DNA of 57,862 bases from a virus (lineage: Duplodnaviria > Caudoviricetes): positions 1-57,862 of the IMG/VR virus record IMGVR_UViG_3300030108_003177, one strand, 5' to 3'. Below the pieces are notes generated by a model that was not told where the DNA came from, searched no databases, and worked only from the letters and a program-made list of their open reading frames with translations. Below, piece by piece: positions 7,691 through 37,652 of the stretch. The position numbers and the translations under genes were made by a program. Positions within the stretch are counted from its first letter, which is position 1, and the number at the start of each line of letters is the position of its first letter.

Positions 7691-10116
7691 TGAATAGAGC
7701 ATTATTACAAAGACAGATGTTTGCTAATGGCGGTAAAGTAATACCTGACGATGCAAAAGGTTTACAAGCTTTAGCAAAAGAACGTCCTGACGTTGTTAGA
7801 AAGATGGGTTTTCAAGCAATGCAGGAGGGCGGTTTAGCAGGTCTTATGTCACAACAGGACATGGCGGCTACACCTATGGGGTCACCACCAATGGATCAGC
7901 CACCGATGGCAGCACAACAGCAATTAGACCCAAACATTATAATGGGTGCTTTACAAACAGCATCCGAAACAACTGGAGATTTGGAACAAGCTCCTGACTT
8001 TCAATCTATGATGAATCAGTTTTCTGGTGAAGATAAGACAGAAGAAGAAAGAAGAGATGATTTGGCAAGTATAGTTGGACCAGAGGACGCGGCTCAAACA
8101 CCAGATAGTGTTTTAGCTTTGGTCACACCGGTAGTTCAACTTAGTATGGTAGAAGAAGGCATTGCACCGATGGCTCGCGACGCAATGGACACACCAGTAG
8201 AAGGCGATATGGCTGGCGGAATAATGAGCATGACGGGGGCTGGAAACGAACCACCCGAAAATTTTAAGTTAGGCGGTGAGGTTCGCCGCCGTGGAGACGA
8301 GGACCCAGTTTTAAAATTCGAAAATGCAGGGGTTGTACCTAACGTGGGTGGAATGTCTACTCCTGGTAATTTTGCAGCAGCACAAAATCAAAATATGCTT
8401 AGAAATCTTGCACTAAATCAACTTGCATTAAATAAAAGATTTGATCTGTTAAAAAATCAACCTACGGCAAACACTACTACTTTAGATGACGGTGCAGATT
8501 TGAAAAAAATATTTGAAAGTAGAAGAGGGATTTATAAAGACATACTTGGAGATACTGAAGAACAAAAAAGATTAACACAAGCTCAAATATTGTTTGACAT
8601 TGCCAATACAGCTTTAACTTATGCAGCTCCAATGCCCGGTGAGAAAAAAGGGTTATCTCCTGCTCAAAGATTAGCGATGGCGGCAACTACAACAAAACTG
8701 CCTCAAACCATAGCGGCAAGAGCAGCAAAACTTTCACAAGATAAACAAAAATTAGATTTAGCCGCTCTTACAGCCAGTGAAAGCATATTATCTGCAAAGA
8801 AAAAAGGGGATATTGAGCTTGCAAAAGCTCGGTTGACAAAAAATAAATTTAGAGAAGTCAAGCCTGCAAATATCATGAAAGATGGTAGGATTGTTGAACA
8901 AATAGATTTAAACTCGCCAATAGGCAGAAACAGGTTTAATAATTTACAACCGGGTGAAACTGTAGATAAACTAACAACAAAAAAGCTTGCTCCGAAATTA
9001 TTGGAGGTTCGTAGTAAAGATAAACCCTCAGTAATTGAAGATTTTGTTGACGTAAATGCAGAAGGTTTTAAACCTGAAAATTACAGCGATAAAATACTTA
9101 CTACCATTGGCCAATATGATGTAGAAAAAAGCGGTAGTTCATATAAACCCATGTCAATAACATTTCAGGGCGTAACAACGGTAGTTGATCAAAATTCACC
9201 AACAGGCCAAGAGGCTATAAAAAAAGCAAATAAACATAACGAAAACCCAAATAACAAAGATAAACCTAAATATGTGATGAGTACTTTGTCTTCTGAAAGA
9301 AGTGCAAAAGGCTTTTATGTTGAATATGACGATAACACAAGTGAATTAGTAACCAGTTTAGATGGCGGCAGGTCTTTTTATTCAAATAAGTTTGGTAATT
9401 ACTTACAGGGAACTTCAGGCAAAATCAAAAACTTTGCACCAATTAATGACAATGAAACATTTAAAATAATTAAAGCTGAAAAAGCAAGTAAAAAGGCCAA
9501 AATAAAATTAAAACAAATTGATGAAAGTTTAATTAAGGATCTTAATGCGAGTAATAATGAAAAGAAAGATTTAAGAGACGCTTTTGATTTAGTAAGAGAT
9601 GCAACAGGTCCTTACGCCCAAATTTATGCAGGATTAGATGCCTTAATCGGTGGTTTTGTACCAATTGACGGCGTAAGAAAGTTTTTTAAAGATGATGTCA
9701 AAGCTAGACTTTACGTCAAATCTATTGGAATACTTGGTCGTGCCGCTTTAGCTGTTAACCCAAGATTAGCAGTTGCTGACTTAGAACAAACTATGCAGTT
9801 GTTTCCAGACCCTAATAGGTTCATAGCTAACCCAGAAACAGAAGTTGAGAATTTAAGAAAAGTAAAAAGTATAGCTGTCAAACAACTAGTATTTTTAAAC
9901 AAAGCATTAGCTGAAGGTAATGTGCCTTCTGAAGAAATAGCACAAGTAAACTCTAAAATACTAGAAATAGAAAAACTTATTGATATACTTAACCCAGTAT
10001 CTTTAGATGGTAAAGCAACAGGTGCTGGAAAAGGTTTCAGTTATACACCTAAAAATCAAGGCGGTGGTTTAAGTTTTGAAGATAAATTTATTAAGAAAAA
10101 AACTGGTGGTAATTGA
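7687..10116 (+). CDS. Internal virion/ejection protein
   Basis: 809 aa, helical, in the ejection cluster; several Phi-x-x-GG motifs in the N-terminal part. Confidence 0.55.
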   Translation: MMNRALLQRQMFANGGKVIPDDAKGLQALAKERPDVVRKMGFQAMQEGGLAGLMSQQDMAATPMGSPPMDQPPMAAQQQLDPNIIMGALQTASETTGDLEQAPDFQSMMNQFSGEDKTEEERRDDLASIVGPEDAAQTPDSVLALVTPVVQLSMVEEGIAPMARDAMDTPVEGDMAGGIMSMTGAGNEPPENFKLGGEVRRRGDEDPVLKFENAGVVPNVGGMSTPGNFAAAQNQNMLRNLALNQLALNKRFDLLKNQPTANTTTLDDGADLKKIFESRRGIYKDILGDTEEQKRLTQAQILFDIANTALTYAAPMPGEKKGLSPAQRLAMAATTTKLPQTIAARAAKLSQDKQKLDLAALTASESILSAKKKGDIELAKARLTKNKFREVKPANIMKDGRIVEQIDLNSPIGRNRFNNLQPGETVDKLTTKKLAPKLLEVRSKDKPSVIEDFVDVNAEGFKPENYSDKILTTIGQYDVEKSGSSYKPMSITFQGVTTVVDQNSPTGQEAIKKANKHNENPNNKDKPKYVMSTLSSERSAKGFYVEYDDNTSELVTSLDGGRSFYSNKFGNYLQGTSGKIKNFAPINDNETFKIIKAEKASKKAKIKLKQIDESLIKDLNASNNEKKDLRDAFDLVRDATGPYAQIYAGLDALIGGFVPIDGVRKFFKDDVKARLYVKSIGILGRAALAVNPRLAVADLEQTMQLFPDPNRFIANPETEVENLRKVKSIAVKQLVFLNKALAEGNVPSEEIAQVNSKILEIEKLIDILNPVSLDGKATGAGKGFSYTPKNQGGGLSFEDKFIKKKTGGN

Positions 10117-13100
10117 TGGCTGAAACACCAAACATTGAACTAAATCCTGAGTTTTCTGATCAACTTGTTGATCCAGAACAACAGTTTCAAAAATTTAGAC
10201 CGATTGATATCTCTCAACAAGATGTTTTAAATTTTGCTGAGTATTATGCTGATCCTGATACAGTCAAAAAATTTGGTAGTGCGGATACTGCATTAGCTGA
10301 AAGCGTTTTAAGAGCAGCTTCAGTTAATTATAATATTCCTAATTTAACCTTAGAAAGTGTGAAAAGAGGTGACTCTGGATTTCAAAAGTTCCTTGAAAAA
10401 GAAGGAATTAGTACAATGTTTGGCAAAAGCATTTACCCTAAAACTGATCGGGATGTTTTAGATTTATTTTCTACCGTAGACGTAGCAAACAATCCTGTAA
10501 TTGAAGGTTTACTTGAGCAAGGCCCCGAATCACTTGGGTTTTCTGGTGGGTTTTTTCTTGGCTCGAAAACTTTTTTTACAAAAGCTCCACCAACTATGGG
10601 TGTTAGGGGCCGTATTTTCGGTGCTTTGGGAGCAGGTGTTACTACAGGTTTGATTACATCAGGTATAGCAAATTATGCCGATGATTTACTTACTGGTCCA
10701 GAAATAATTGTTCCTCCAAGCCAAAGACCATACTACGAAGGTGGCAAGGCTTTAGCTGATTTTTTATCTTTCATGCCTCTACCTTATCTTGTAAAGCCCG
10801 GTGCACAACTTGGGGCGGTTCATCTTGTTGAAAACATAAGAAGAAGAGCTGATTTAATTGAAAATAGTGGTATTACATTTACTGCGGATAAAAGTAAATT
10901 TTTAAAAGATTTACAAGCTTTTCAAAAAAGAGGCAAAGTCCCTTTTACTTTACGTTTATCCAAAGGTATTGATACCTTGTTCGCATCAAGTATTAAACCT
11001 TTTCAGACAAATCCTATCAGGTCAGGAATAACTGAGTTTGGAGCAGGCAGTGGAGCTGCTTTCGCTAGAATTATCTCAGAGCAAGAAAATCCAGGTGAGT
11101 TTTTTCCAGCTTTTGGTGCAGAAGTAGCAGGCGGTGTAGGAGCAGGTTTAGTTACGTCTATTGGTACAAATTTAATAGTTTACCCATCCTACAGAATTTT
11201 AGCTGGTGCATTACCTGTTATAAAAAATATATTTACCAAAGGTAGACTATCTGACAAACCTACAGGTGAAGCTGCCTCTGACTTTTTTACTGGCAAAACA
11301 GGCCCTGGTAAAGTTTTTAAGACTTTTAGAGAAAGAACTGCGGTCAAAGATTTAATTGAAAAAATTGAAATTTTTGGTGAAGACCCTAACCAAATCATTG
11401 CAAAACTAGAAGCAGATTACGAAACACCTGAAGCATATGCTAATAGTAATATTAAAATCGCTTATGACAAATTATCTGAGTTAGCTCAAACGTCCGCTGC
11501 TTTCAAAGCTGATAGTCCAGTTTTAATGTTAATAGAATCAACCTTAGCTAATAAATATGACCATTTAAGTAGTATGAAAAAACAACAACTAATGGACGCT
11601 CAAAAAGGTTTAATTGATTTGTTAACAATATTAAAAGGATCAGGAGATGATGAGGCTTTACTTGTAGCTAGTCAAATTGAGGATGAGATACTTAAAGATA
11701 ACATACAAACTAATCTTGATTATGGTATTGGTGAGATACTGACTGCGTTTAACAAACTTAGAGGTTCTGTAGCTAAAGATGAGAACACTACTCAAGTTTT
11801 ATCACGAAGATTGTTTTCTTTTATTGATGACAGCATGGACAAAGCTAGGACAAAAGAACGTGAACTTTATGAAAACATACCTAATTTTAGCATCAGTATT
11901 TTAAATGATGAAAATTCTAATTTCTTAAAAGCAATGAAAGATAAGGACATCATTCCGCAAAATCCAACAGGAAAAAATATCATTTACAAAAAATTTGAAA
12001 AAAATACAGGTGTTTTTGGTTTTGAGCAAAGAGTTAGAAAAGCACTTGGCCTTGAAACAGACGATACTATTGTCGCAACGCCTAGCACAACAGACAAAAG
12101 ATTACTTCAACTACAAGAACAAGCGGCTAACTTTTCTGCTGATACAAAAAGTAAATATAAAGAATTGTTAGAAAATATTGAAGATCCAATTAAAGTAGCA
12201 GAAATACTCGAAATAGGAGATATGAAAAAGATTGCTCAGTTAGAAGATAAATTAGGGGGTATCGTTGTTGCATTTGACAAAACTTTAGGCGGAAAAAATG
12301 TAAATAGACTATCAAATCATTTAGAATTTATTTATGACCAAGTTGGTATTCCTAGAGAGGGTGCTGAAGGAGGAGAAGAGACAACAGGGTTACTTAGAAA
12401 AGCACTTGCTTATTTGAAAGGTAGACCTCCAACAAAAACTGATAAAAAGGGGCTTAGTAGAGATGACGCTTCTCGACGTACAAAACAAGAAAATGAAGAT
12501 GAAAGGCTTCACAAAGAAGCAATAAAGTATATAGAAACTGAAATTGATATTTCATTGTTACAAGAGGGTAGAGGTGCTGATTACACTTTTAATCCTAATA
12601 TTTCAAATGCAGAAAATTTACAAAACTTAACTGAAGTTTTAATGAGGCAAACTCTGGACTCTAAAGACAAGGCAGGCAGAGATAAGGCAAGGACTTTGAA
12701 CCTTTATGCCAAAAAATTAATTGAAATACAAAATAGAAAAGATATTGTAGATCAATCTTCTGCAAGAACTTTAGATACTGGAGCTGGGTTAGACGAAGTG
12801 CCTCCATTAACTCTTGATGAACTAAGAGACATGAGAACTTTCTTGTACAATGAGGCAAGAGTATTGAAAAAGGCTGGGGATTTTGACGGCCACAGACGAT
12901 TAAATTATCTCGCAGATGCTTTGAGGAAAGATATATTATCCTTAGTAAATGATCCAAATGCAGCTGAGTTTGCCGCTCAACTTAATGCAGCAAACAAATA
13001 TTCCAAGGCCCTTAATGATGTCTTTACAAGAACTGCTATAGGTCAAAAAGTATTTAAAACAAATAGAACAGGAGAACTAACTACTCCTCCTGAACTTTTA

Positions 13101-15821
13101 TACACCGAGCTTCAAGGCTTTAACGATGCAGCAGCTTTACGATACAAAGAGATTGAAAACGTGCACACATTTTTAAAAGATGAAGGTCTTTTAAAAGATA
13201 ATGAAGAATGGACAAGTACACCAACATATCAAACAGTTTTATATGGATTGCTTAGAAACGATCCACGAATCACGGGCCTGTTTTCAGAAAAAAATATACG
13301 AAAAAATATTGATGACCCAAGCAGTGAAATTTCAATACCAAGAATTAACGAAACCACTGCAAAAAAATTGTTAAATGATCCTAAAGCACAAGAAATACTT
13401 AATGCTTTTCCAGCAATCAGAAACGATTTACAAAACTCAATTAGAAAAGAAAACCTTTTCCGAGGATTGTTAGACGAAAATAGCGTTATGATAAAAAGAG
13501 CGAAAGATAAACACGCTTTTGCTTCTCTTCACAATTTTGAAAGTCCTGAAAAATTAATTGCTATAAATTTAAATTCTGACGAACCTATAAAAAATTTAAA
13601 TAATTTAATAGCTGACATAAAAAATTTTGGTAAGAAAATAATTAAAGACCCTTTAGATAAAGACAGTGCAACTGTGACTGGAGCTACGGGAGAGGTGCCT
13701 GTAAATAAGTTTACTAAAGTGGTTACTACTTCCGATGGCGTTCAAAGAGAAATGATTGAAGAAGTCAACGTATCAAGTATGTTGAGGGGACTAAGAGAAT
13801 CTATATTAGGTCATGTTCTTACCAAATCAGGACTTGAAAGCACTGGTCCTTTTAATCCAGCTAAAGCTTATGAAATGTTGTTTCAACCGATAAAGGGTGT
13901 TGGCGGGAGAAGACGTCAATCTTTAGCTACATGGATGAGATCTAACAAGTTAATAACAGATACTGAACTTAAAACTTTTGAAAAAGTTTTAGGTAATATG
14001 CAAAAAATACAATCACAACAAGCGTCAGGCGAAATAGATATATCCACGGCTGAAAATGCTTTTTTTCAATTTACTACTAGAGTTGCAGGTGCTACAGCAG
14101 GTCAAAGTTTTCAAAGATTTATGTTTCCAGCATCATCTGCGGGAGGGTTGATTGCAGAGTCATCAGGTTCTAAATTATTTCAAAAATTTTTATTAGCTAT
14201 ACCTGAGGCTGCAAGACAAGATACAATGTTAGAGGTTATGAAAGATCCAACCTATCTAGCTCAATTAATGAGAGATGTAAGAGACGAAAAAGTCGCACTA
14301 AGTGTTATTGATTTTATGAAAAGAAAGTTAAAAGAAGCATCGATCATAGCAGTAACAGGTTCAGTCAGAAGAACAGCCCCAGCTGCTAAAGAAGAAGATC
14401 TCACAGATATAATTAAAGAGGATCAAAGAGATAGAGACATTGATAAATCAGCTTCTGTTGTTTTGCCACAAGAGGGGTCTCCCACCACCCAAGTAGCAAG
14501 TCGACTAAATAGGGGAATGAAGACCCCCATCGCGGCTAACGTGGGGTCACCCCCACCAGCCGCGTCTATTAATAGAAACAGGTTTGCATCGTTGTTTCCA
14601 AACGATCCCATATCAGGATTAATTAACGCTCAACAACAAGGCACGACACAATTTATGAAATATGGCGGTATGGCCGGCAATCCTTCATATGACATGGGAC
14701 TTGAGACAGATTTTACAGCCCAACAAGCTATACAATCTGCTCTTGAAAATACTACGACAAGAGATGATGATCAGGACACCTCAAATTTAACAAGGACAAC
14801 TTTACCAAGTACTTTAACTAAAAATAGAGGTAATAAATTTACTGGCATTACATCTATAAATCTTCCCGGTTATGCAAATACAATTGTTAATGAGCTGAAG
14901 GATTTTGTAACAGGTAAAAAAGGCTTCCAACCGTTTTTTGAACAATTACCGGGCGGAGGGTTTAATCTTGGAGCTAAAATACCAATGAATTTTTTTGCTG
15001 ATGGTGGGTTTGTTGATGACTCAGAGATAGGAATGAAAGATGATTCCCAACTGACACAAGCTGATATTGATACAATCAACCAAAGTGATAGTGTAGACTT
15101 TGATGCCTATGCTTCTGAATTTGATCCAGTGGGTATAGCACAAATCATAGCTGAACCAAAAGTTGGTCTCAATAGATCAAATATTATAGGTATGACTGAT
15201 AGACAAGGTAGAGATATTTATAGTCCTAAATATGCACAAGCTTTAAATATTACTAGAAATTTATTGCCGGGCAACACTGTAGAACGGGGCTCTAATTTAA
15301 CTAGAAATCAAAACTTTTTTTCTGGTCCAAGAGATTTAGCAAGGCCACAAAATCTGATACCATCGGTCCCAGGTGCTTTAGATATGAGAGCTGGGTTCGG
15401 TTATGAAAGACCAATGTATTTTTCAGGTACTGAAAGATTTTTACAAGAAACGGCTCCTAATTTAGTAAGACAAGCAATGGATATGGGCATCATGGGTTTA
15501 GTTAGAAAAGCTGGAGATTACTTTAGCGGTAATTTTAGTAAACTATTTGGAGGTGATGAAGAGATCACGCCAGAAAAAATAAAAATGGGAGATCAGAAAT
15601 ATACAAATCCAATTCAAACTAAGGGCCTAACAGAGATTCCTTTAAATGAATATCTATTCACTCGTTCAGGAATGAGACCTAGAACTCTTTTTGATTTAAC
15701 AGATCCAGCGTTTGATATAAAAGATTTTCGACCCGGTGGAGCTTACGATCAACGCGAGAATTTTAGAATAGAGGTGTTGCCTGATGGTAGCCAAGTTGTA
15801 AGATCAATAGGTAATGTATAG
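10113..15821 (+). CDS. Large internal virion/ejection protein (about 1900 aa; ATG at 10116 is the likely start)
   Basis: Largest ORF and last of the ejection cluster; FASLFPNDPISGLI segment; no catalytic motif recognised. Confidence 0.55.
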   Translation: MMAETPNIELNPEFSDQLVDPEQQFQKFRPIDISQQDVLNFAEYYADPDTVKKFGSADTALAESVLRAASVNYNIPNLTLESVKRGDSGFQKFLEKEGISTMFGKSIYPKTDRDVLDLFSTVDVANNPVIEGLLEQGPESLGFSGGFFLGSKTFFTKAPPTMGVRGRIFGALGAGVTTGLITSGIANYADDLLTGPEIIVPPSQRPYYEGGKALADFLSFMPLPYLVKPGAQLGAVHLVENIRRRADLIENSGITFTADKSKFLKDLQAFQKRGKVPFTLRLSKGIDTLFASSIKPFQTNPIRSGITEFGAGSGAAFARIISEQENPGEFFPAFGAEVAGGVGAGLVTSIGTNLIVYPSYRILAGALPVIKNIFTKGRLSDKPTGEAASDFFTGKTGPGKVFKTFRERTAVKDLIEKIEIFGEDPNQIIAKLEADYETPEAYANSNIKIAYDKLSELAQTSAAFKADSPVLMLIESTLANKYDHLSSMKKQQLMDAQKGLIDLLTILKGSGDDEALLVASQIEDEILKDNIQTNLDYGIGEILTAFNKLRGSVAKDENTTQVLSRRLFSFIDDSMDKARTKERELYENIPNFSISILNDENSNFLKAMKDKDIIPQNPTGKNIIYKKFEKNTGVFGFEQRVRKALGLETDDTIVATPSTTDKRLLQLQEQAANFSADTKSKYKELLENIEDPIKVAEILEIGDMKKIAQLEDKLGGIVVAFDKTLGGKNVNRLSNHLEFIYDQVGIPREGAEGGEETTGLLRKALAYLKGRPPTKTDKKGLSRDDASRRTKQENEDERLHKEAIKYIETEIDISLLQEGRGADYTFNPNISNAENLQNLTEVLMRQTLDSKDKAGRDKARTLNLYAKKLIEIQNRKDIVDQSSARTLDTGAGLDEVPPLTLDELRDMRTFLYNEARVLKKAGDFDGHRRLNYLADALRKDILSLVNDPNAAEFAAQLNAANKYSKALNDVFTRTAIGQKVFKTNRTGELTTPPELLYTELQGFNDAAALRYKEIENVHTFLKDEGLLKDNEEWTSTPTYQTVLYGLLRNDPRITGLFSEKNIRKNIDDPSSEISIPRINETTAKKLLNDPKAQEILNAFPAIRNDLQNSIRKENLFRGLLDENSVMIKRAKDKHAFASLHNFESPEKLIAINLNSDEPIKNLNNLIADIKNFGKKIIKDPLDKDSATVTGATGEVPVNKFTKVVTTSDGVQREMIEEVNVSSMLRGLRESILGHVLTKSGLESTGPFNPAKAYEMLFQPIKGVGGRRRQSLATWMRSNKLITDTELKTFEKVLGNMQKIQSQQASGEIDISTAENAFFQFTTRVAGATAGQSFQRFMFPASSAGGLIAESSGSKLFQKFLLAIPEAARQDTMLEVMKDPTYLAQLMRDVRDEKVALSVIDFMKRKLKEASIIAVTGSVRRTAPAAKEEDLTDIIKEDQRDRDIDKSASVVLPQEGSPTTQVASRLNRGMKTPIAANVGSPPPAASINRNRFASLFPNDPISGLINAQQQGTTQFMKYGGMAGNPSYDMGLETDFTAQQAIQSALENTTTRDDDQDTSNLTRTTLPSTLTKNRGNKFTGITSINLPGYANTIVNELKDFVTGKKGFQPFFEQLPGGGFNLGAKIPMNFFADGGFVDDSEIGMKDDSQLTQADIDTINQSDSVDFDAYASEFDPVGIAQIIAEPKVGLNRSNIIGMTDRQGRDIYSPKYAQALNITRNLLPGNTVERGSNLTRNQNFFSGPRDLARPQNLIPSVPGALDMRAGFGYERPMYFSGTERFLQETAPNLVRQAMDMGIMGLVRKAGDYFSGNFSKLFGGDEEITPEKIKMGDQKYTNPIQTKGLTEIPLNEYLFTRSGMRPRTLFDLTDPAFDIKDFRPGGAYDQRENFRIEVLPDGSQVVRSIGNV

Positions 15822-21075: not shown

Positions 21076-22586
21076 TGTTTCGTATATTCGGGCCCCCAGG
21101 TACAGGCAAGACAACAACACTGCTCAATATGGTAGACAACCATCTTAGCCAAGGTGTACATCCAAACCACATTGCCTTTCTTGCTTTCACAAAGAAAGCA
21201 GCCAACGAGGCCAAAGAAAGAGCAGCGTCTAGATTTAAACTAGATCCTGAAAAAGATTTGTTTTTCTTCAGGACTTTACACAGTCTTGCACTAAATTTGT
21301 CAGAAATAAGGCCAGAGCAAGTCTTATCACGAGAACATTTCCTAGAGCTGGGGCAGAAGATAGGTATATCGTTTGGACGTATCAGCGGTATGGATGAAGA
21401 TATTATTGATAAACAGAACAATGATCATCCGATACTAAACACAATTAATTTAGCACGGTTACGCAAAGTCTCACTACGACAACAATACAATGAATCATAT
21501 ATAGAAGATGACTGGAACACAGTAAACTACGTCCACAAATGCTACATCGAATACAAGAAACAACGTAACCTTTATGACTTCACAGATATGCTTGAGATGT
21601 TTGTCAAAGACTATGACCGCATCTGTCCGACTTTTGAGATTACATTTCTTGATGAAGCACAGGACTTATCGCCTTTACAGTGGGACATTGCCCACGCCTT
21701 GGATAAGAAAAGCAAAGCTATGTATGCAGCTGGAGATGATGACCAAGCTATCTACAGGTGGGCGGGAGCTGATGTTGATCAGTTTATTAATTTAGAAGGC
21801 ACCTCAGAAACGCTTGACCAGTCATTCAGAGTACCAAGACAGATACACAAGATCGCTGAATCCATTGTCGATAGAATTAAGCATAGGTATCCGAAACGCT
21901 ATCAGCCCAAAGAAGAAGAGGGCACAGTCAAACACATGGCACGACTTGATGACATTGATCTTACAGAGGGACAATGGCTGATCTTAGCTCAAGCGGGGTA
22001 CATCTTAAATCCAGTCGCAGAAACGCTCAAGTCTATGGGTCTGCTCTTCTCACACAAAGGCCATCGTTCTATATCTGCGAAGATATCTTCAGCTGTGAAT
22101 GGCTGGGAACAACTGCGTAAAGGTAAACAGATTACACTCGATACAGCAAGAGACGTTTACAGCTTCATGTCTAGTGGCACACGGGTCAAGCGAGGTTTTA
22201 AAAAATTAAGTGGCATAGATGATCAGGATTTGCTAGACATGGCAACATTACAGAACAGTCACGGACTTGTTGTAGGGGATGAACTTATATGGCACAAGGC
22301 ACTCGATAGATTGCCCGAAGAGTCAAGAGTATACATTACAGCCCTGTTACGCAGAGGCGAGAAGTTTAATGGCGAGCCTCGCATTACAGTATCTACGATA
22401 CACGGGTCCAAGGGCGGTGAGTCTGAAAATGTTGTGATATTCACCGACTTATCGCCCGCGGCTGACGATGCCATGCGGATTGGTAACGATGACGTACACC
22501 GCGTATTCTATGTAGCCGTTACACGGGCCAAACAAAATCTTTATATCATTGAACCTGATGACAACAATAGGAGCTATCACATATGA
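21075..22586 (+). CDS. UvrD/Rep-like SF1 helicase
   Basis: GPPGTGKT, DEAQD, GDDDQAIY, STIHGSKGGE, YVAVTRAK. Confidence 0.9.
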   Translation: MFRIFGPPGTGKTTTLLNMVDNHLSQGVHPNHIAFLAFTKKAANEAKERAASRFKLDPEKDLFFFRTLHSLALNLSEIRPEQVLSREHFLELGQKIGISFGRISGMDEDIIDKQNNDHPILNTINLARLRKVSLRQQYNESYIEDDWNTVNYVHKCYIEYKKQRNLYDFTDMLEMFVKDYDRICPTFEITFLDEAQDLSPLQWDIAHALDKKSKAMYAAGDDDQAIYRWAGADVDQFINLEGTSETLDQSFRVPRQIHKIAESIVDRIKHRYPKRYQPKEEEGTVKHMARLDDIDLTEGQWLILAQAGYILNPVAETLKSMGLLFSHKGHRSISAKISSAVNGWEQLRKGKQITLDTARDVYSFMSSGTRVKRGFKKLSGIDDQDLLDMATLQNSHGLVVGDELIWHKALDRLPEESRVYITALLRRGEKFNGEPRITVSTIHGSKGGESENVVIFTDLSPAADDAMRIGNDDVHRVFYVAVTRAKQNLYIIEPDDNNRSYHI

Positions 22587-26317: not shown

Positions 26318-26423
26318 GAGCTACTTTCCTTTGTATTTTGTAACAGGTACAACCGCTTGAATACTTTTTTCGTCCACATTGATGGCAAATGACACACGGC
26401 TCTCCTCTGAAAACTTGATTCAT
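26250..26423 (-). CDS. Small Cys-rich protein (57 aa, not in ORF track)
   Basis: MNQVFRGEPCVICHQCGRKKYSSGCTCY...; AAAGG upstream. Confidence 0.35.
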   Translation of the reverse strand: MNQVFRGEPCVICHQCGRKKYSSGCTCYKIQRKVAHVSRTKGRGKNEHTESHKITKP

Positions 26424-26516
26424 AAACCTTTAACTATAAATAACTTTTTACAAATTAATAGACTTGACATCAAAAAAAGTTATAATCGAATCATAACAAC
26501 CGCAGAAAGTTTACAA

Positions 26517-26996
26517 ATGGACCCTGTAACGATTACCGCGGCTCTAAGTGTTGCAAAATCGGCCTTTACGGCGATCAAAAATGGATTCGCCGTCGGAAAA
26601 GATATAGAATCTATGGGAAAAGACCTATCACGCTGGATGGGAGCCCTAAGTGACGTCGATAATGCCGAAAAAACCACGAAGAACGCGTCAGCTCTACAAA
26701 AATTATTCAAGGGCAAAGAAATAGAAGCCTCGGCCATCGAAGCTTTTACAGCTAAAAAGAAACTGGAACAGCAAAGACAAGAGCTGAAGACCTTTATTAA
26801 TTTTCATTACGGAGCTAATTCTTGGAATGAAATACTTCATATGGAAGGACAGATACGAAAGCAAAGGCAAAAAGAAATCTATGAACGCCAAGAACTGATT
26901 AGAAAAATATGGGAATGGATTGGTATTGTTGTGCTGTGTGCCTCGATTATAGGATTTATTACGCTGTTAGCTTATCTTTATATAAATAAAAATTGA
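26517..26996 (+). CDS. Hypothetical protein with C-terminal transmembrane helix
   Basis: MDPVT start preferred over the track start; promoter-like TAGACT-16-TATAAT at 26459-26486. Confidence 0.6.
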   Translation: MDPVTITAALSVAKSAFTAIKNGFAVGKDIESMGKDLSRWMGALSDVDNAEKTTKNASALQKLFKGKEIEASAIEAFTAKKKLEQQRQELKTFINFHYGANSWNEILHMEGQIRKQRQKEIYERQELIRKIWEWIGIVVLCASIIGFITLLAYLYINKN

Positions 26997-27021
26997 CACA
27001 TATGTGATCATATGCGATAAC
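26993..27021 (+). promoter_or_regulatory. Promoter for the candidate sRNA
   Basis: TTGACA-17-GATAAC with extended TG; same geometry and TATGCGA.AACT sequence as the promoter at 29226. Confidence 0.5.
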
Positions 27022-27025
27022 TGGT

Positions 27026-27162
27026 GTTGAAAAAGAAACAATAAAACTACCTTTTTCAATTATTCTTTATTAAAGACCTTAATTTAAAATAAGAATAATA
27101 ACTATATAATGTGTGATAAAAACTAGCTGCATAGAACTCCTCCGTTTTATGCAGCTTTTTTA
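27026..27162 (+). ncRNA. Candidate trans-acting antisense small RNA (three hairpins, unpaired seed, anti-SD loop)
   Basis: Stems 27026-35/27051-60, 27061-67/27091-97 and 27125-37/27144-56 plus U-tract; loop UCCUCC; seed 27102-27117 is complementary to early-gene leaders. Confidence 0.6.
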
Positions 27163-27163
27163 T

Positions 27164-27215
27164 TTGACATACTAAATTATATGTATAAGATATATCGCAT
27201 AACACATTATAGGAG
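27164..27215 (+). promoter_or_regulatory. Promoter, operator-like site and conserved leader
   Basis: TTGACA-16-TAAGAT; ATAAGA-N4-TCGCAT; ACACATTATAGGAG. Confidence 0.55.
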
Positions 27216-27220
27216 ATGAT

Positions 27221-27373
27221 ATGGCAAATAAAATAGATCTGTTGTCGATGTTTCAAAAGAAACACTTACTTTTAATCTACCGATTAGAAGATCTAGTGCG
27301 TAAAAATAAAAAAATGATTTGTACAAAAGAAATAGAAAAACTGCTTAAAAAGGCAGAGAACGTAAATGACTAA
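27221..27373 (+). CDS. Small hypothetical protein (50 aa, not in ORF track)
   Basis: MANKIDLLSMFQKK...; SD AGGAG; overlaps the MTase start. Confidence 0.5.
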   Translation: MANKIDLLSMFQKKHLLLIYRLEDLVRKNKKMICTKEIEKLLKKAENVND

Positions 27374-28091
27374 ACAAAATAAAACACACGCTGTTATGAG
27401 CCAAAGGCATGAGGATAAGGAGAGTAAAGATTACTTTCCTACTCCGCCTTGGGCAACAAGAGCTTTGTTTGAGAAAGTTTTAAAAAAATATTGGCGTATA
27501 CCTGATAAATTTACTGGCCGATATGGACATATAGATTGTTTGGAGCCAGCTTGCGGAGCTGGTCACATGACAAAAGTATTAAAAGAGTATTTTGATACAG
27601 TTGTTTCAGCTGACATAGATGATTATGGCCAAGACCGAATCGCCGATTTCCTTAAAACAGACGAAAAACAGAAGTATCATTACATTGTAACCAATCCACC
27701 GTTTAACCTGGCTGAAGAATTTGTATTAAAAGCATTAAAACAAGCAAGATACTGTGTTGCTATCTTTGCAAGAACACAGTTTTTAGAAAGTGTAGGAAGA
27801 TATGAAAGATTATTTAAAGAGACACATCCTGATTTTGTGGCTCAGTTTACAGAGCGAGTACCAATCCTTAAAGGAAAGCTATCGGCAACGGCGTCCACAG
27901 CTACGAGCTATGCTTGGTTTGTTTGGAAAGGCTTTGAAGAAGATGAAAGGTCGTTTGGAACAGATTTGGTTTGGATACCACCATGTAGAAGTCAGCTTGA
28001 AAAGGAAGGGGACTACGAAGAGAGTTTGGCAACACCATATCCTCGATCCACAAGTCACGCCTCGCAGAGAGACTTATTTCCAAAAAATTAA
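27366..28091 (+). CDS. DNA amino-methyltransferase (probably N6-adenine)
   Basis: DYFPTP, LEPACGAGH (SAM binding), TNPPF (catalytic motif IV). Confidence 0.85.
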   Translation: MTKQNKTHAVMSQRHEDKESKDYFPTPPWATRALFEKVLKKYWRIPDKFTGRYGHIDCLEPACGAGHMTKVLKEYFDTVVSADIDDYGQDRIADFLKTDEKQKYHYIVTNPPFNLAEEFVLKALKQARYCVAIFARTQFLESVGRYERLFKETHPDFVAQFTERVPILKGKLSATASTATSYAWFVWKGFEEDERSFGTDLVWIPPCRSQLEKEGDYEESLATPYPRSTSHASQRDLFPKN

Positions 28092-29240: not shown

Positions 29241-29276
29241 AAGTATGCGACAACTCTTATACACATTATATAGGAG
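29226..29276 (+). promoter_or_regulatory. Early promoter with operator-like site and conserved leader
   Basis: TTGACA-17-GACAAC (extended TG); ATGCGA-N4-TCTTAT; ACACATTATATAGGAG. Confidence 0.6.
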
Positions 29277-29281
29277 ATTGT

Positions 29282-29530
29282 ATGAAAGACTATACTTTTA
29301 AATTAGACGTTGATATTTGGCTTGATCGTAATTTTACAGCTAAAGCTAATTCTTTAGAAGAGGCTAAAGAAAAAGCTAAAGTTATGGCAAAAGAAATTTT
29401 TAAAGACGCCCCAAATGTTTACAATGGTAGAGAGGGAGGTAAATCATTAGAGCTGTTGGCAAACTATTTGTCAGACTGGAATTTTGGAGATTTACGTTTT
29501 GATGTTGTTAATGTCGAGGAGGAAGAGTAA
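29282..29530 (+). CDS. Small acidic early protein (DpnD/PcfM-like)
   Basis: Y.F....AKANSLEEAKEKA pattern; SD. Confidence 0.55.
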   Translation: MKDYTFKLDVDIWLDRNFTAKANSLEEAKEKAKVMAKEIFKDAPNVYNGREGGKSLELLANYLSDWNFGDLRFDVVNVEEEE

Positions 29531-32264: not shown

Positions 32265-32329
32265 AGGCCATGTTTGACATGGCCTTTTTTATTTGATAAA
32301 TATATAAGATAAATCACATATTATAGGAG
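32265..32329 (+). promoter_or_regulatory. Terminator/promoter hybrid cassette 1
   Basis: AGGCCATGT-TTG-ACATGGCCT plus T-tract, containing TTGACA-17-TAAATA; then ATAAGA-N4-TCACAT and leader/SD. Confidence 0.65.
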
Positions 32330-32337
32330 AAATATCT

Positions 32338-32499
32338 ATGGAAAAATACAAAGTTTTTATGTCAGGTTGGCTGAAAACTACTGTGTATGTTGAAGCTGAA
32401 AACGAAGATGAAGCTTTAGATAATGCACAAATGGAAATGTCTTTTGATAATTTAGAAGAGATAGAAGTTTTAGGAACTGTAAACGAGGAGGAGGAATAA
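32338..32499 (+). CDS. Small acidic early protein (DpnD/PcfM-like; 53 aa, not in ORF track)
   Basis: KYKV....VYVEAENEDEALDNA; SD AGGAG. Confidence 0.6.
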   Translation: MEKYKVFMSGWLKTTVYVEAENEDEALDNAQMEMSFDNLEEIEVLGTVNEEEE

Positions 32500-33345: not shown

Positions 33346-33402
33346 AAAAACTGAGTATTTATTGCTCAGTTTTTTTTATGTTTTAACTATCACACAAAGG
33401 AG
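33346..33402 (+). promoter_or_regulatory. Terminator/promoter hybrid cassette 2
   Basis: AAAAACTGAGTA...TGCTCAGTTTTT plus T-tract; weak TTGCTC-16-TAACTA; leader TATCACACAAAGGAG. Confidence 0.5.
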
Positions 33403-33407
33403 AAAAT

Positions 33408-34568
33408 ATGAGACATTTAGAAAATGACAGTAGGACTTTAGAGAACCTATTACTTGATATCAAAAGTCATAATGATATGAAACAAGACTTTATTGCACCT
33501 ACAAACCAACTTCAGTTTAAAACCATAGAGAACGACAAAGGCGTTAAAACTAGTCAGATTATTATGGAAGCTGATAGAGGAGAGAAAACTCAAATCTTAA
33601 ATGCAAACCAAGTATGTTTAGATCAAATTGCAAATAAGATTGAAATCCAAGCACCAACATTTAGGCGGCTATTAAATGAAGTTCCAGAGGAAACTGACGC
33701 CGTTGTTAATGCTTTATTTGAAAAGAATCCAGTTAGGAGAATGATCAGAACTTATGATAATCCTCATGCATTATCTCCATTTAATTATGACCATCATACT
33801 GGAATTGCTAGAGCATTTGTTTCTGATAAATTTAAAACTTTTGATAATTCTGATTTATTAGAATCTGCATTGCCTACACTTGGGGAGTCTGGTGCTTCAT
33901 GGAAGATTGTTAACTATGCCAACAGCGATAAAAAACTTTATATTAGATTGAAAAGCGAAGTTATAACAGCTGACGCAGGTGTTAATGATATTATGGCACA
34001 TGGGATAGGTATTTCTAATAGTGAGGTAGGTTTTGGTAGTATTTCAGTTTTTGGTATATCTTGGACATTAGCTTGTTTAAATGGGATGCAAACTGAAAAT
34101 GTAACTAGGAAAGCACATATTACGAGTGCTAGAACTGGAGATCATTATAACATATTAACCGATGAAACTAAGGACGCCGATAACCACGCCCTGAAACTTC
34201 AACTAAGAGATATAATTTCTTCTTATGGTAGTAGAGAAACATTCGATGAAAATGTTGAGAAAATTAGATTAGCTAAAGAAGATAAAATTGCTGTAGGCAA
34301 AAATTATACTGAAGCGGTTGAGGACTTAGGCAAGGTTATGTCTTTATCTAAAAAAGAAACTTCAAGTGTTTTAGATGGTTTATTAAATACCATAGGACAA
34401 AGAGGTTATGAACAAGGACAGCCAATATCAAAGGCAACTTTAGTGAATGCTTGTACTAATGTTGGAAATACAGCTGAAGCCGATAACGTAGACTTTTGGC
34501 AAAAATTAGGTGGAAAAGTTTTAAATCTTAAATCTAATGACTGGAATAGAGTCGCTTTAGCTAGTTAG
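33408..34568 (+). CDS. DUF932/DUF945-family protein
   Basis: RAFVSDKF..FDN, GI.ISNSEVG.GS, LACLNGM. Confidence 0.75.
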   Translation: MRHLENDSRTLENLLLDIKSHNDMKQDFIAPTNQLQFKTIENDKGVKTSQIIMEADRGEKTQILNANQVCLDQIANKIEIQAPTFRRLLNEVPEETDAVVNALFEKNPVRRMIRTYDNPHALSPFNYDHHTGIARAFVSDKFKTFDNSDLLESALPTLGESGASWKIVNYANSDKKLYIRLKSEVITADAGVNDIMAHGIGISNSEVGFGSISVFGISWTLACLNGMQTENVTRKAHITSARTGDHYNILTDETKDADNHALKLQLRDIISSYGSRETFDENVEKIRLAKEDKIAVGKNYTEAVEDLGKVMSLSKKETSSVLDGLLNTIGQRGYEQGQPISKATLVNACTNVGNTAEADNVDFWQKLGGKVLNLKSNDWNRVALAS

Positions 34569-34765: not shown

Positions 34766-34830
34766 AAACGGCGTAATTTGACTTTTACGCCGTTTTTTTT
34801 TATTATCTTAACATCACAATTATATAGGAG
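34766..34830 (+). promoter_or_regulatory. Terminator/promoter hybrid cassette 3
   Basis: AAACGGCGTAA-tTTGACTt-TTACGCCGTTT plus T-tract; TTGACT-17-TATTAT; leader ATCACAATTATATAGGAG. Confidence 0.75.
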
Positions 34831-34836
34831 ATTAAA

Positions 34837-34992
34837 TTGAAAAAAATAAAATGGATTCTCTATTTAAGAGGACAAAAAGGTTGGACTGAAGAAGCTCAAT
34901 ATGACAACCAAGATGATGGAGAGTATTATCTTGAGGAATGGAAACAAGAGTTTCCAGAGTGTAAATTTAAATTAGTCAAAATGGAGGTATAA
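34837..34992 (+). CDS. Small early protein (51 aa, TTG start; not in ORF track)
   Basis: MKKIKWILYLRGQKGW...; SD AGGAG. Confidence 0.5.
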   Translation: MKKIKWILYLRGQKGWTEEAQYDNQDDGEYYLEEWKQEFPECKFKLVKMEV

Positions 34993-35888: not shown

Positions 35889-35953
35889 AAACGCCAGTAT
35901 TTGACTCTACTGGCGTTTTTTTTTATATTAATAGTTCACACATTTAAAAAGGT
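35889..35953 (+). promoter_or_regulatory. Terminator/promoter hybrid cassette 4
   Basis: AAACGCCAGTA-tTTGACTc-TACTGGCGTTT plus T-tract; TTGACT-17-TATATT; leader TCACACATT. Confidence 0.75.
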
Positions 35954-35959
35954 AAATTT

Positions 35960-36625
35960 ATGTTAAAAACTACAATATATAAAAAGAACATTTTTGAATT
36001 AGAAAATTATCAATTCAAAATATTAAAACCCAGTACAAATAAAAAGCTTGGAAAAAAAGTTTTAAAAGGTAAATACAAAGATTATAAATTTGTAACTTTA
36101 ACACTTGTAGAGCGTGAGACGTGCCCCAAAGATTGCGTCCATTGGTCAGATTGTTACGGCAATAATATGCCTTTTGCTCATCGAATGAGTGCAAAAGATG
36201 AAGAGCTATTGATGAAGAGAATCTACAATGATTTATTAAATAGTGTTAATCAATTTTTATTAATTCGCTTGCATATTTTAGGCGATTTTTTCAGCGTGAA
36301 ATATGTAAAATTTTGGCGTAAAATGTTAAACACTTTTAATAATATTGCTTTATATGGATATACAGCAAATAATATTAAATCGATTTATTCAGATTCCAGA
36401 GCAATTGCAAAAGAGATAATTAAATTAAATAAAAATGAAGATTGCCACATTAGATTCAGTAATGATTTACAAGCTTCTTTTTCTGCGAATTCATACGACA
36501 TTGTAAAACCTGTTAAAGGTGTTTCAATAGTATGCCCAGTTCAAGAAAATAAAACCGCTAATTGTGGAACTTGCGGACTATGTTGGAATCAAAAAGAACA
36601 ACAAATTATATTTAAAACGCATTAA
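35960..36625 (+). CDS. Phage Gp88-like Cys-rich (radical-SAM-like) protein
   Basis: N.KLGK, TCPKDC.....CY, IRLH..GDF, YGYT, CP.Q....NC..C.LCW. Confidence 0.65.
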   Translation: MLKTTIYKKNIFELENYQFKILKPSTNKKLGKKVLKGKYKDYKFVTLTLVERETCPKDCVHWSDCYGNNMPFAHRMSAKDEELLMKRIYNDLLNSVNQFLLIRLHILGDFFSVKYVKFWRKMLNTFNNIALYGYTANNIKSIYSDSRAIAKEIIKLNKNEDCHIRFSNDLQASFSANSYDIVKPVKGVSIVCPVQENKTANCGTCGLCWNQKEQQIIFKTH

Positions 36626-36654: not shown

Positions 36655-36729
36655 AAACGCTGTAATTTGACATTTACGGCGTTTTTTTTTATTCTTTTTT
36701 TATCACACAATTAATAATTATATAGGAGG
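36655..36729 (+). promoter_or_regulatory. Terminator/promoter hybrid cassette 5
   Basis: AAACGCTGTAA-tTTGACAt-TTACGGCGTTT plus T-tract; TTGACA-17-TATTCT; leader ATCACACA...ATTATATAGGAGG. Confidence 0.75.
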
Positions 36730-36737
36730 TTTTTATT

Positions 36738-36920
36738 GTGAAAAATTCAAAATTTAAATATGAATTAAAAAAGCAATTTGATGATTTAATTTATGAAATT
36801 GTTAAAACTAGAACGCTTAATTATAGCGATGATATTAATCAGCTGGTCAAACAAATGACTCCAACAATTGAGAAAATTAATAATTTATTGGAGGATAAAA
36901 ACAATGAAATTATTAAATAG
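36738..36920 (+). CDS. Small early protein
   Basis: GTG start with SD AGGAGG. Confidence 0.5.
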   Translation: MKNSKFKYELKKQFDDLIYEIVKTRTLNYSDDINQLVKQMTPTIEKINNLLEDKNNEIIK

Positions 36921-37130: not shown

Positions 37131-37172
37131 AACGCCGTTAATTATTGACGGCGTTTTTTTATGTTTTAAATA
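37131..37172 (+). terminator. Terminator/promoter hybrid cassette 6 (end of early region)
   Basis: AACGCCGTTAA-TTA-TTGACGGCGTT plus T-tract; TTGACG-16-TAAATA; no ORF follows. Confidence 0.65.
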
Positions 37173-37652
37173 GTTAAACATCGTCCAGACGGACGCAAAC
37201 AGCTGTTTAAAACCTACGGCGTAATAATAACAGCTGTAGAACTTTGAACCGAGAACCGCGAATTAAAAACCTTGGAGAAATTAAAAAGCAATTTGGACAA
37301 CTTGCCGTGATCCACGAACCAAACGACCTGGAATTTTTAAAATTAAATCACTGATGTTATTAACTTTTTTTAGTGTTTAAGCTGCGGAAAAAGTTTAAAT
37401 TAAAACGGCATCAGGACGCCAAATAATGAGCCGTGAGCCGTGAAACTTTAGGCTAGAGACTCCGATAAATAAAGGTTAATTTATAAGGCTAGAGCAAAGA
37501 AAAATGGGCAAAAAATCACGGACGGCGTGCAATCGCCTGCGGGTGCTTGTGCCAAGTTTTTCACAAATATTCACATATAATTTGAAATAGCCATTAACTA
37601 TATTATAATAAGCGATAAATGGCATAAAATAACATAGCATAGGGGCCCCTAC

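Follow-up and report, generated by a model that had tools for sequence, protein, structure and literature searches.

A candidate small RNA complementary to the leader shared by terminator-promoter cassettes in a relative of HTVC023P-type pelagiphages

Satellite phage P4 encodes the CI RNA, whose pairing partners are two repeated sites and which, like the c4 RNA of phages P1 and P7, is cut out of the operon transcript itself and serves the immunity of a temperate element. In the c4 system (immI), translation is blocked by exposed complementary stretches of the RNA that pair with the mRNA around its ribosome binding site, as outlined in PMC12197685. Here we describe a short unit (26993-27162, + strand) in an uncultured marine phage, which probably gives rise to a small RNA (sRNA) and contains the complement of a leader found in front of seven genes. 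The window, i.e. the whole stretch of DNA that was analysed, is a complete IMG/VR virus record (IMGVR_UViG_3300030108_003177; 57,862 bases, G+C 37.6%, completeness rating 100%), and all coordinates refer to it. By analogy, the unit would work most like the c4 and CI RNAs: it resides 5' of all seven leaders on the same + strand, and the predicted duplexes lie near the ribosome binding region. It is not a member of those families, however, because the window contains no match to any Rfam family, c4 among them, at gathering score and because the unit, unlike c4 and CI, has a promoter and a terminator of its own. Its targets likewise have their own promoters, and at least seven target sites are spread over 10 kb here.

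A second point of reference is provided by the PeSL elements of T4-type phages, terminator-plus-promoter repeats that flank small open reading frames (ORFs) in a hyperplastic region and mark gene exchange, as described in PMC4122927 and PMC2839356. The cassettes in the window similarly fuse a terminator stem-loop with a promoter and are repeated between small ORFs, and in close relatives unrelated genes reside behind the same cassette. They differ in that the phage is a ~58-kb HTVC023P-type podovirus and not a T4-like myovirus, and in that the repeat spans a shared 5' untranslated region (UTR). We know of no antisense partner described for the PeSLs.

Base-pairing RNAs of phages and their satellites are not new. 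A lambda sRNA acts on host replication according to the account in 10.1101/2024.10.31.621285, and an sRNA of PLE acts on both ICP1 and PLE transcripts according to that in 10.1101/2022.04.08.487710. The unit described here shares with these the base-pairing RNA of a phage-like element, while it is predicted to target a single leader that recurs on cassette mRNAs of the phage itself. Short terminated transcripts of lambdoid phages (pR'-tR' RNA, StxS) illustrate that a by-product RNA can be a regulator, as set out in PMC7547250. They resemble the present unit in the sequence of strong promoter, short structured RNA and intrinsic terminator directly before a gene block. Read-through in lambdoid phages depends on the Q antiterminator; neither a Q-like gene nor a qut-like site was identified in the window. 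Finally, sRNAs of Gram-positive bacteria with C-rich loops (RNAIII, Rsa RNAs) bind Shine-Dalgarno (SD) sequences. A C/U-rich hairpin loop complementary to GGAG is also present here, but unlike in RNAIII and the Rsa RNAs it is the terminator's own, comprises only 5-7 nt and is variable among relatives. Our literature search retrieved no sRNA described for HTVC023P-type or other pelagiphages, in agreement with what a first-pass annotation of this DNA had said for the phage group. What would be new, in comparison with the known trans-acting phage sRNAs, is an RNA directed against the leader of cassette mRNAs in this type of phage.

A conserved seed and its fit to seven leaders

The central part of the unit is the block AACUAUAUAAUGUGUGAU (27100-27117, + strand), which is predicted to be single-stranded and is referred to as the seed. 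Its 16-mer CTATATAATGTGTGAT (27102-27117) is the reverse complement of the consensus leader ATCACACATTATATAG. A search with the ORF upstream of the unit yielded 80 homologous loci. In 14 of them, with 89-96% protein identity, the unit directly follows this ORF, while different genes occupy the place in the others. Column counts were made over 13 distinct sequences of this clade. None of the 18 seed columns varies, as opposed to 85 of 205 third codon positions in the upstream ORF (41%) and 40 of the 83 columns of the unit from hairpin 2 onward, seed excluded (48%). At the neutral rate, the chance of finding no variable column among 18 is ~0.59^18 = 7.5e-5. The exact 16-mer is present in all 15 units in IMG/VR (15 of 38 exact-pattern matches, the remaining 23 being unrelated DNA), in 14 of 14 units that were found via promoter P1 and hairpin 1 and extend to the seed, and in all 11 metagenome units that extend to it (12 units among 30 matches). 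The most diverged unit, L167, differs at many sites yet keeps it.

The leaders proved conserved in the same way. Ten alleles of the first cassette (promoter P2) vary in 10 of 39 upstream columns and in none of the 17 columns from ATAACA to GGAG, variation in the cassettes of genes 33408 and 35960 ends just before TCACA, and the core of leader 2 is invariant in 7 of 7 alleles. Seed and leaders are under purifying selection. They also occur together: three of three clade genomes contain one seed and 5-6 leader sites, and three of three more distant genomes contain neither. A covariance model of the unit found strong matches in 4 of 21 related records and in neither of the two reference phages; matches at E 0.015-0.47 in four more records were treated as noise. 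Unit and leader family alike are thus confined to a single narrow clade. When IMG/VR was scanned with the leader pattern, 12 matches were obtained, six of which represent one cassette of the clade and six of which are unrelated.

Whether matches of this kind exceed what an A/T-rich genome offers by chance depends on how they are scored. Plain counting is unimpressive. The 16-mer with up to three mismatches matches twice (0.83 expected), and the 9-mer with up to one mismatch gives 25 matches (22.7 expected). Full-length duplex folding, which ignores accessibility, produced long, loop-ridden duplexes and no discrimination. A clearer picture emerged when the mean duplex energy with the seven leaders was calculated for every 20-nt window on both strands. 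After setting aside 189 windows that are the leaders' own opposite strand, 57,653 were left, among which the seed window at 27101(+) ranks second (mean -14.4 kcal/mol, z -6.2); the sole better one is a G/U-rich stretch within a gene on the - strand. Full-length duplex folding was replaced by an accessibility-corrected score with a threshold of -9 kcal/mol net, applied to 91 translation start regions. Gene 27221 is missing from this list, in which the spurious - strand ORF 27056-27265 takes its place, and leader 1 was scored separately. Six of the 91 regions score -9 kcal/mol or lower; when the single-stranded segment was shuffled 132 times at matched composition, 0.19 regions did so on average and never more than 2. 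Averaged over six leaders, the score is -11.1, as against -1.6 ± 0.9 in the shuffles, none of which reaches the observed value. Overall, six of the seven leaders and one of 85 other genes (22583) attain -9 kcal/mol or better. The first-pass annotation had named matches no better than A/T-rich background as grounds for abandoning its proposal; by rank (2 of 57,653) and by shuffling (0 of 132), the complementarity exceeds composition. Gene 22583, the only non-cassette gene at this level, contains ATCACAT between its SD and ATG (22568-22585).

All eight leader matches that the annotation had listed were recovered at the same positions and with the same lengths. Leader 1 (ATAACACATTATAGGAG, 27199-27215, gene 27221-27373) matches over 10 nt exactly (27202-27211; net -9.3 kcal/mol), and leader 2 (ATACACATTATATAGGAG, 29259-29276, gene 29282-29530) over 13 nt exactly (29261-29273) or 14 with one G:U pair, with a duplex energy of -17.1 and a net value of -10.3 kcal/mol. 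Leader 3 (ATCACATATTATAGGAG, 32313-32329, gene 32338-32499), which is preceded by a terminator at 32265-32285, pairs over 13 nt with one G:U (32313-32325; net -11.8 kcal/mol). The 9-nt match of leader 4 (33388-33396; leader ATCACACAAAGGAG, 33389-33402, gene 33408-34568; net -9.5 kcal/mol) draws on A27118, just beyond the 16-mer, and here a terminator at 33346-33374 comes before the leader. Leader 5 (ATCACAATTATATAGGAG, 34813-34830, gene 34837-34992) matches over 15 nt with one bulge (34813-34827; net -13.2 kcal/mol), while leader 6 (TCACACATTTAAAAAGGT, 35936-35953, gene 35960-36625) is the weakest of the seven (9 nt, 35936-35944; net -7.7 kcal/mol). Leader 7 (ATCACACAATTAATAATTATATAGGAGG, 36702-36729, gene 36738-36920) offers two runs, 13 nt at 36697-36709 and 9 nt at 36717-36725, the longer of which extends into the A-run at 27118-27122; its net value of -14.1 kcal/mol is the best of the 91 genes. 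All seven are on the + strand.

The leaders are, as far as promoter and terminator predictions tell, the transcribed starts of PeSL-like terminator-promoter cassettes. Each of the terminators at 32265, 34766, 35889 and 36655 is directly followed by a promoter. In the cassettes 34766-34806, 35889-35929 and 36655-36695, which are 76-89% alike, the -35 element even lies within the terminator loop (TTGACT in 34766-34806; TTGACT or TTGACA across the three), and the T-tract runs directly into the -10, as it also does in the cassette 32265-32300. The order past each -10 is the same: about 6-7 nt, (A)TCACA, an A/T-rich run (TTATATA), GGAG and a start codon 5-8 bases on. The shared motif thus makes up an entire short 5' UTR, beginning at the predicted +1 and ending with the SD. 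What lies behind a cassette is far less constant. At least six different first genes follow an identical P2 and leader 1 in close relatives, their products beginning with MANKIDLL (window), MKDIQEVK (L003), MIREQQGK (L008), MEKPLFVE (L015), MEDELYYI (L167) and VAKEQKIY (L141).

Layout, fold and strand of the unit

In full agreement with the first-pass annotation, the unit comprises a promoter, three hairpins, the unpaired 16-mer and a terminator with a 13-bp stem and a U-tract, all within 26993-27162, and it is gene-free in that its + strand holds only frames of 5-6 codons that lack an SD. Promoter P1 (26993-27021, + strand) consists of TTGACA (26993-26998), a 17-nt spacer and GATAAC (27016-27021), exactly as annotated, and none of its 29 columns varies. 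The earlier description did not mention that the hexamer is preceded by TG (TG-c-GATAAC), which makes it an extended -10. The same design, TTGACA-N11-(A/G)TATGCGA(T/C)AAC, drives gene 29282. The -35 of P1 overlaps the stop codon of the upstream ORF (26379-26996), and the sequence of the unit doubles as the 3' end or 3' UTR of transcripts running through this ORF. Within the spacer (26997-27015), there are a perfect 10-bp palindrome CACATATGTG, one GATC and two CATATG; these motifs are invariant in the IMG/VR set, and one metagenome unit (L168) has a C to G exchange there.

The predicted RNA begins with hairpin 1 (27029-27057), a GAAAAAG ... CUUUUUC stem with a 15-nt loop. Its nine pairs never vary, and only 3 of 37 columns do. 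Two stretches in this hairpin resemble the complements of cassette genes. Its loop and 3' arm (27041-27060) are complementary in 17 of 20 positions to the SD/start region of gene 35960 (35942-35961), and loop sequence ACAAUAAAA (27038-27046) is complementary to UUUUAUUGU across the GTG start of gene 36738 (36731-36739). These complementarities may represent a second contact, or chance. Hairpin 2 (27059-27099) consists almost solely of A and U and varies in 25 of 42 columns. Its sequence and length differ among haplotypes by indels and by substitutions on both arms, and a hairpin nonetheless forms in every variant. The seed is followed by a linker (4 of 8 columns variable) and by the intrinsic terminator (27125-27162), which is made up of the 13-bp stem (27125-27156) with loop UCCUCC (27138-27143) and TTTTTAT; 9 of the 27 columns of its arms and 2 of the 6 loop columns vary. 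An A-run ahead of the stem (27118-27122) makes the terminator appear two-way. Promoter P2 (27164-27191, + strand; TTGACA, 16 nt, TAAGAT), which serves the first cassette gene, begins only 2 nt past the U-tract. On its - strand, the P2 region contains a copy of the extended -10 (TATGCGATAT) and of the leader start of the 29282 promoter. This inverted copy could be a divergent - strand promoter that fires into the two-way terminator.

Both the minimum free energy (MFE) structure and the centroid of 27029-27162 (+ strand) show the three hairpins and leave the 16-mer unpaired. The fold has -31.1 kcal/mol and a z score of -6.6, and none of 200 shuffled sequences was as stable; the - strand of the same segment yields z -3.0. 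All 12 distinct variants adopt the same three-hairpin fold with an open seed, the mean probability of being unpaired amounting to 0.77-0.80. In the terminator, all 13 pairs are kept in 12 of 12 distinct sequences, with five pairs varying only via G.U and one changing from AU to GC, and L167 shows an additional AU to GC double change in the stem. Read on the - strand, the wobble pairs would turn into C-A mismatches, which argues that the hairpin under selection is one of + strand RNA. A reading of the 16-mer as part of a - strand promoter was rejected, as no -10 is present at the right distance.

Possible action in trans and competing explanations

The mechanism that we favour as the best reading is the following. 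Host RNA polymerase of the sigma-70 type would transcribe, from P1, a + strand RNA of ~133 nt (roughly 27029 to 27160) that ends at its own intrinsic terminator and consists of a 5' hairpin, an A/U hairpin, a single-stranded seed of 16-18 nt and a terminator hairpin with a C/U loop. The seed would pair in trans with the first ~10-16 nt of the short cassette 5' UTRs between 27.2 and 36.9 kb, which would start at (A)TCACA, ~6-7 nt past the -10, and run via TTATATA to GGAG. For five leaders, the distance from the end of the duplex to the start codon is 9-13 nt; it is 16 nt for 35960 and, for the longest run of 36738, 29 nt. The duplex thus lies within the 30S footprint, so that reduced translation would be the likeliest effect, with exposure of the mRNA to decay; the opposite sign, protection of the mRNA 5' end, is an alternative. 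We consider it probable that a discrete + strand RNA exists. Its action in trans on the leaders is a plausible proposition to which we assign somewhat less than an even chance.

The first-pass annotation also described the UCCUCC loop of the terminator as an anti-SD loop. In the window the loop is indeed exactly UCCUCC; in relatives, however, TCCTCC is found in 8 of 12 distinct IMG/VR variants, the full set being TCCTCC, ACCTCC, CCTCCTT, TCCTC and TCTCC, with CUCC kept in all of them. Joint action of loop and seed on one contiguous leader has to be discarded on grounds of geometry. In a bound leader the SD faces the 5' side of the seed, but the loop is located on its 3' side, and both can therefore not share one such site. 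The seed pairs no further than the first G of GGAG, and in the energy model the loop scored for one gene only (36904, -5.8).

Nor can the switch from early to late genes that the annotation had envisaged be put forward as more than a hypothesis, since the sequence is silent on when the RNA acts; "early" is, for these genes, an unproven label. A broader idea is that one sRNA governs every gene behind a mobile terminator-promoter-leader cassette, so that the regulon is set by the cassette and not by the genes. We advance this tentatively, with less confidence than action in trans as such. If it were true, any gene shuffled into the hyperplastic region would join the RNA switch without further evolution, and a layer of RNA control would sit atop PeSL-like gene shuffling. 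Recognition of the leader of exchangeable cassettes by an RNA would provide a simple, testable control rule and would connect regulation with gene shuffling. A 16-nt seed and seven named sites make the prediction sharp, and it lends itself to reporter assays in a laboratory host although the phage itself is uncultured.

Several points weigh against action in trans on the leaders. Every unit belongs to a single narrow clade, and together they represent one evolutionary event; the seed is identical in every unit found, so that there is no covariation with the leaders. Pairing relies on A/U-rich duplexes of modest energy (net -7.7 to -14.1 kcal/mol at 37 °C), weak in the case of two of the seven leaders, and the cassette of gene 34837 occurs with two quite different leader alleles. 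On the DNA side, the P1 hexamer GATAAC is weak and a perfect TATAAT lies inside the seed block. The leader motif may have been kept for reasons of its own, such as promoter escape or a function as an A/U-rich translation enhancer, and its complement may have arisen by inversion of cassette DNA, given that a second inverted fragment adjoins. The RNA and its targets would moreover be made from similar promoters at the same time, and no delay is therefore explained. Hairpin 1, loop included, is about as conserved as the seed, which pairing with the leaders leaves unexplained.

This last point bears directly on the alternative that survives best. The RNA could be real but act in cis, as a terminated promoter-proximal leader in the style of lambda pR'-tR', or be aimed at host mRNAs, with the match to the leaders being secondary. 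In the cis version, the seed of a read-through transcript would pair with leader 1 of the same molecule and thereby shut off the first gene. Indeed, the fold of 27030-27245 pairs the seed with leader 1 in both the MFE structure and the centroid, and the unit heads a region with at least six terminators. The conservation of hairpin 1 (3 of 37 columns variable) goes beyond what the leaders call for and would fit a cis role or another target, as would the location of the unit in the 3' UTR of the upstream operon. On the other hand, the terminator is strong (13 bp plus U-tract) and P2 follows after 2 nt, so that most transcripts of leader 1 should lack the seed. In addition, the seed fits the consensus of all leaders, among which leader 1 is one of the weaker matches (10 bp). 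Taken together, we regard this group of explanations as unlikely, though the most serious of the competitors.

Slightly less likely still is a role of the 16-mer as an element of double-stranded DNA, either as an operator for a phage or host protein that would also bind at +1 to +16 of the cassette promoters or as an internal promoter with TATAAT (27105-27110) as its -10. The motif occupies a fixed place beside promoters and is conserved from about +1, just as an operator would be, and sequence related to it occurs in both orientations within the P1 spacer (ACATATGTGAT and the palindrome CACATATGTG). Yet the motif itself is non-palindromic, it occurs in one orientation at all seven leaders and in the opposite one only at the unit, and there it coincides with the sole unpaired stretch of a conserved RNA fold. 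As for an internal promoter, the promoter scan did return TTTAAA-16-TATAAT at 27083-27110 (10 of 12 matches), but the -35 partner is not kept, as it is shifted by the indels of hairpin 2 in most relatives. A -10 would also leave the invariant GTGTGAT unexplained, and the real cassette promoters vary at -1 to -6.

A relic without function, left by an inverted or recombined cassette next to what would be an ordinary terminator of the upstream operon, is a very improbable reading of the complement. Inverted cassette DNA does occur nearby (27172-27201 versus 29244-29273, 80% over 30 nt), and the - strand order of hairpin, T-run and ATCACACATTATATAG resembles a cassette. The - strand has, however, no -10 at the right distance, and an idle sequence is hard to reconcile with a seed that shows no variable column next to 41% variable third codon positions and 48% variable neighbouring columns and that is exact even in L167. 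An inverted relic, which the first-pass annotation had itself considered, may well describe where the seed came from, as suggested by the second inverted fragment beside it, but not its present state. Hardly credible, finally, is a hydrophobic peptide of 14-17 amino acids (MQLVFITHYI...) encoded on the - strand with GGAGGA of the loop as its SD and the ATG in the stem: the 5-nt distance between GGAGGA and ATG and two of three linker differences among haplotypes that would be synonymous speak for it, but the ATG is ATA in the L015 type (IMG/VR contigs behind L015/L131 and L016/L136; metagenome contig L183), the C-terminus shifts with indels, no promoter lies in front on the - strand and the stem changes are wobble-compatible on the + strand only.

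The phage and its cassette block

The large terminase shares 56-64% identity with those of Pelagibacter phages HTVC027P and HTVC023P, phage 023Pt_psg01 and phage DSL-LC04, and genes are ordered as in those phages, i.e. DNA polymerase A is followed by small genes in a block that includes a methyltransferase, and this block by terminase and structural genes. Terminase identity and gene order together identify the phage, as far as sequence comparison can, as a relative of the HTVC023P-type podoviruses. At the DNA level, no megablast similarity to deposited phages was found and blastn matches to them were at chance level only (E ~3). The source PMC12753301 names this group as the ocean's most abundant known pelagiphages, and the present phage is a relative of it. 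It also describes the temporal classes of HTVC027P as a mosaic along the genome and its early genes as being without known function. An RNA polymerase gene of HTVC023P-type phages was found neither in the present analysis nor in that paper, and control by a base-pairing RNA would bear on how such phages time their genes.

Nearly all genes of the window are carried on the + strand. The block at 27.2-37.1 kb, equivalent to gp21-gp28 of HTVC027P, stands out with a G+C content of 24-34% versus ~40% in the rest of the window, and GC skew gave no origin-like switch at the sRNA unit. In HTVC027P, its equivalent comprises genes gp21-gp28. Among the 15 ORFs of the region that were scanned against Pfam, 14 gave nothing above the cut-off, the sole match being GP88 for ORF 35960-36625. 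No lysogeny genes were present among the ORFs scanned. A DNA methyltransferase gene (PHROG 799, 27366-28091) resides just downstream of the unit. In six relatives (L005, L006, L007, L010, L012 and L014), the P2 cassette and its small gene are absent downstream of the unit, and the methyltransferase gene has a promoter (TTGACA-17-TATTTT) only 5 nt before its ATG, so that its mRNA may be leaderless in these phages.

Three further observations concern the surroundings. In a more distant relative, G009 (loci L107-L109), a region at ~27057-27353 contains the 12-mer TGCTAGTGTTTA several times in both orientations within 300 nt, a cluster that looks like operators or iterons. At E 0.001, no PHROG match was obtained for an ORF of 1,902 amino acids at 10113-15821. 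The ~500 nt (37157-37652) that separate the final terminator of the cassette block from the terminase gene lack a convincing ORF and contain short inverted (ACAGCTGT ... ACAGCTGT) and direct repeats (GAGCCGTGAGCCGTGA) together with a promoter near consensus at 37582-37609; this stretch may be a packaging or regulatory region.

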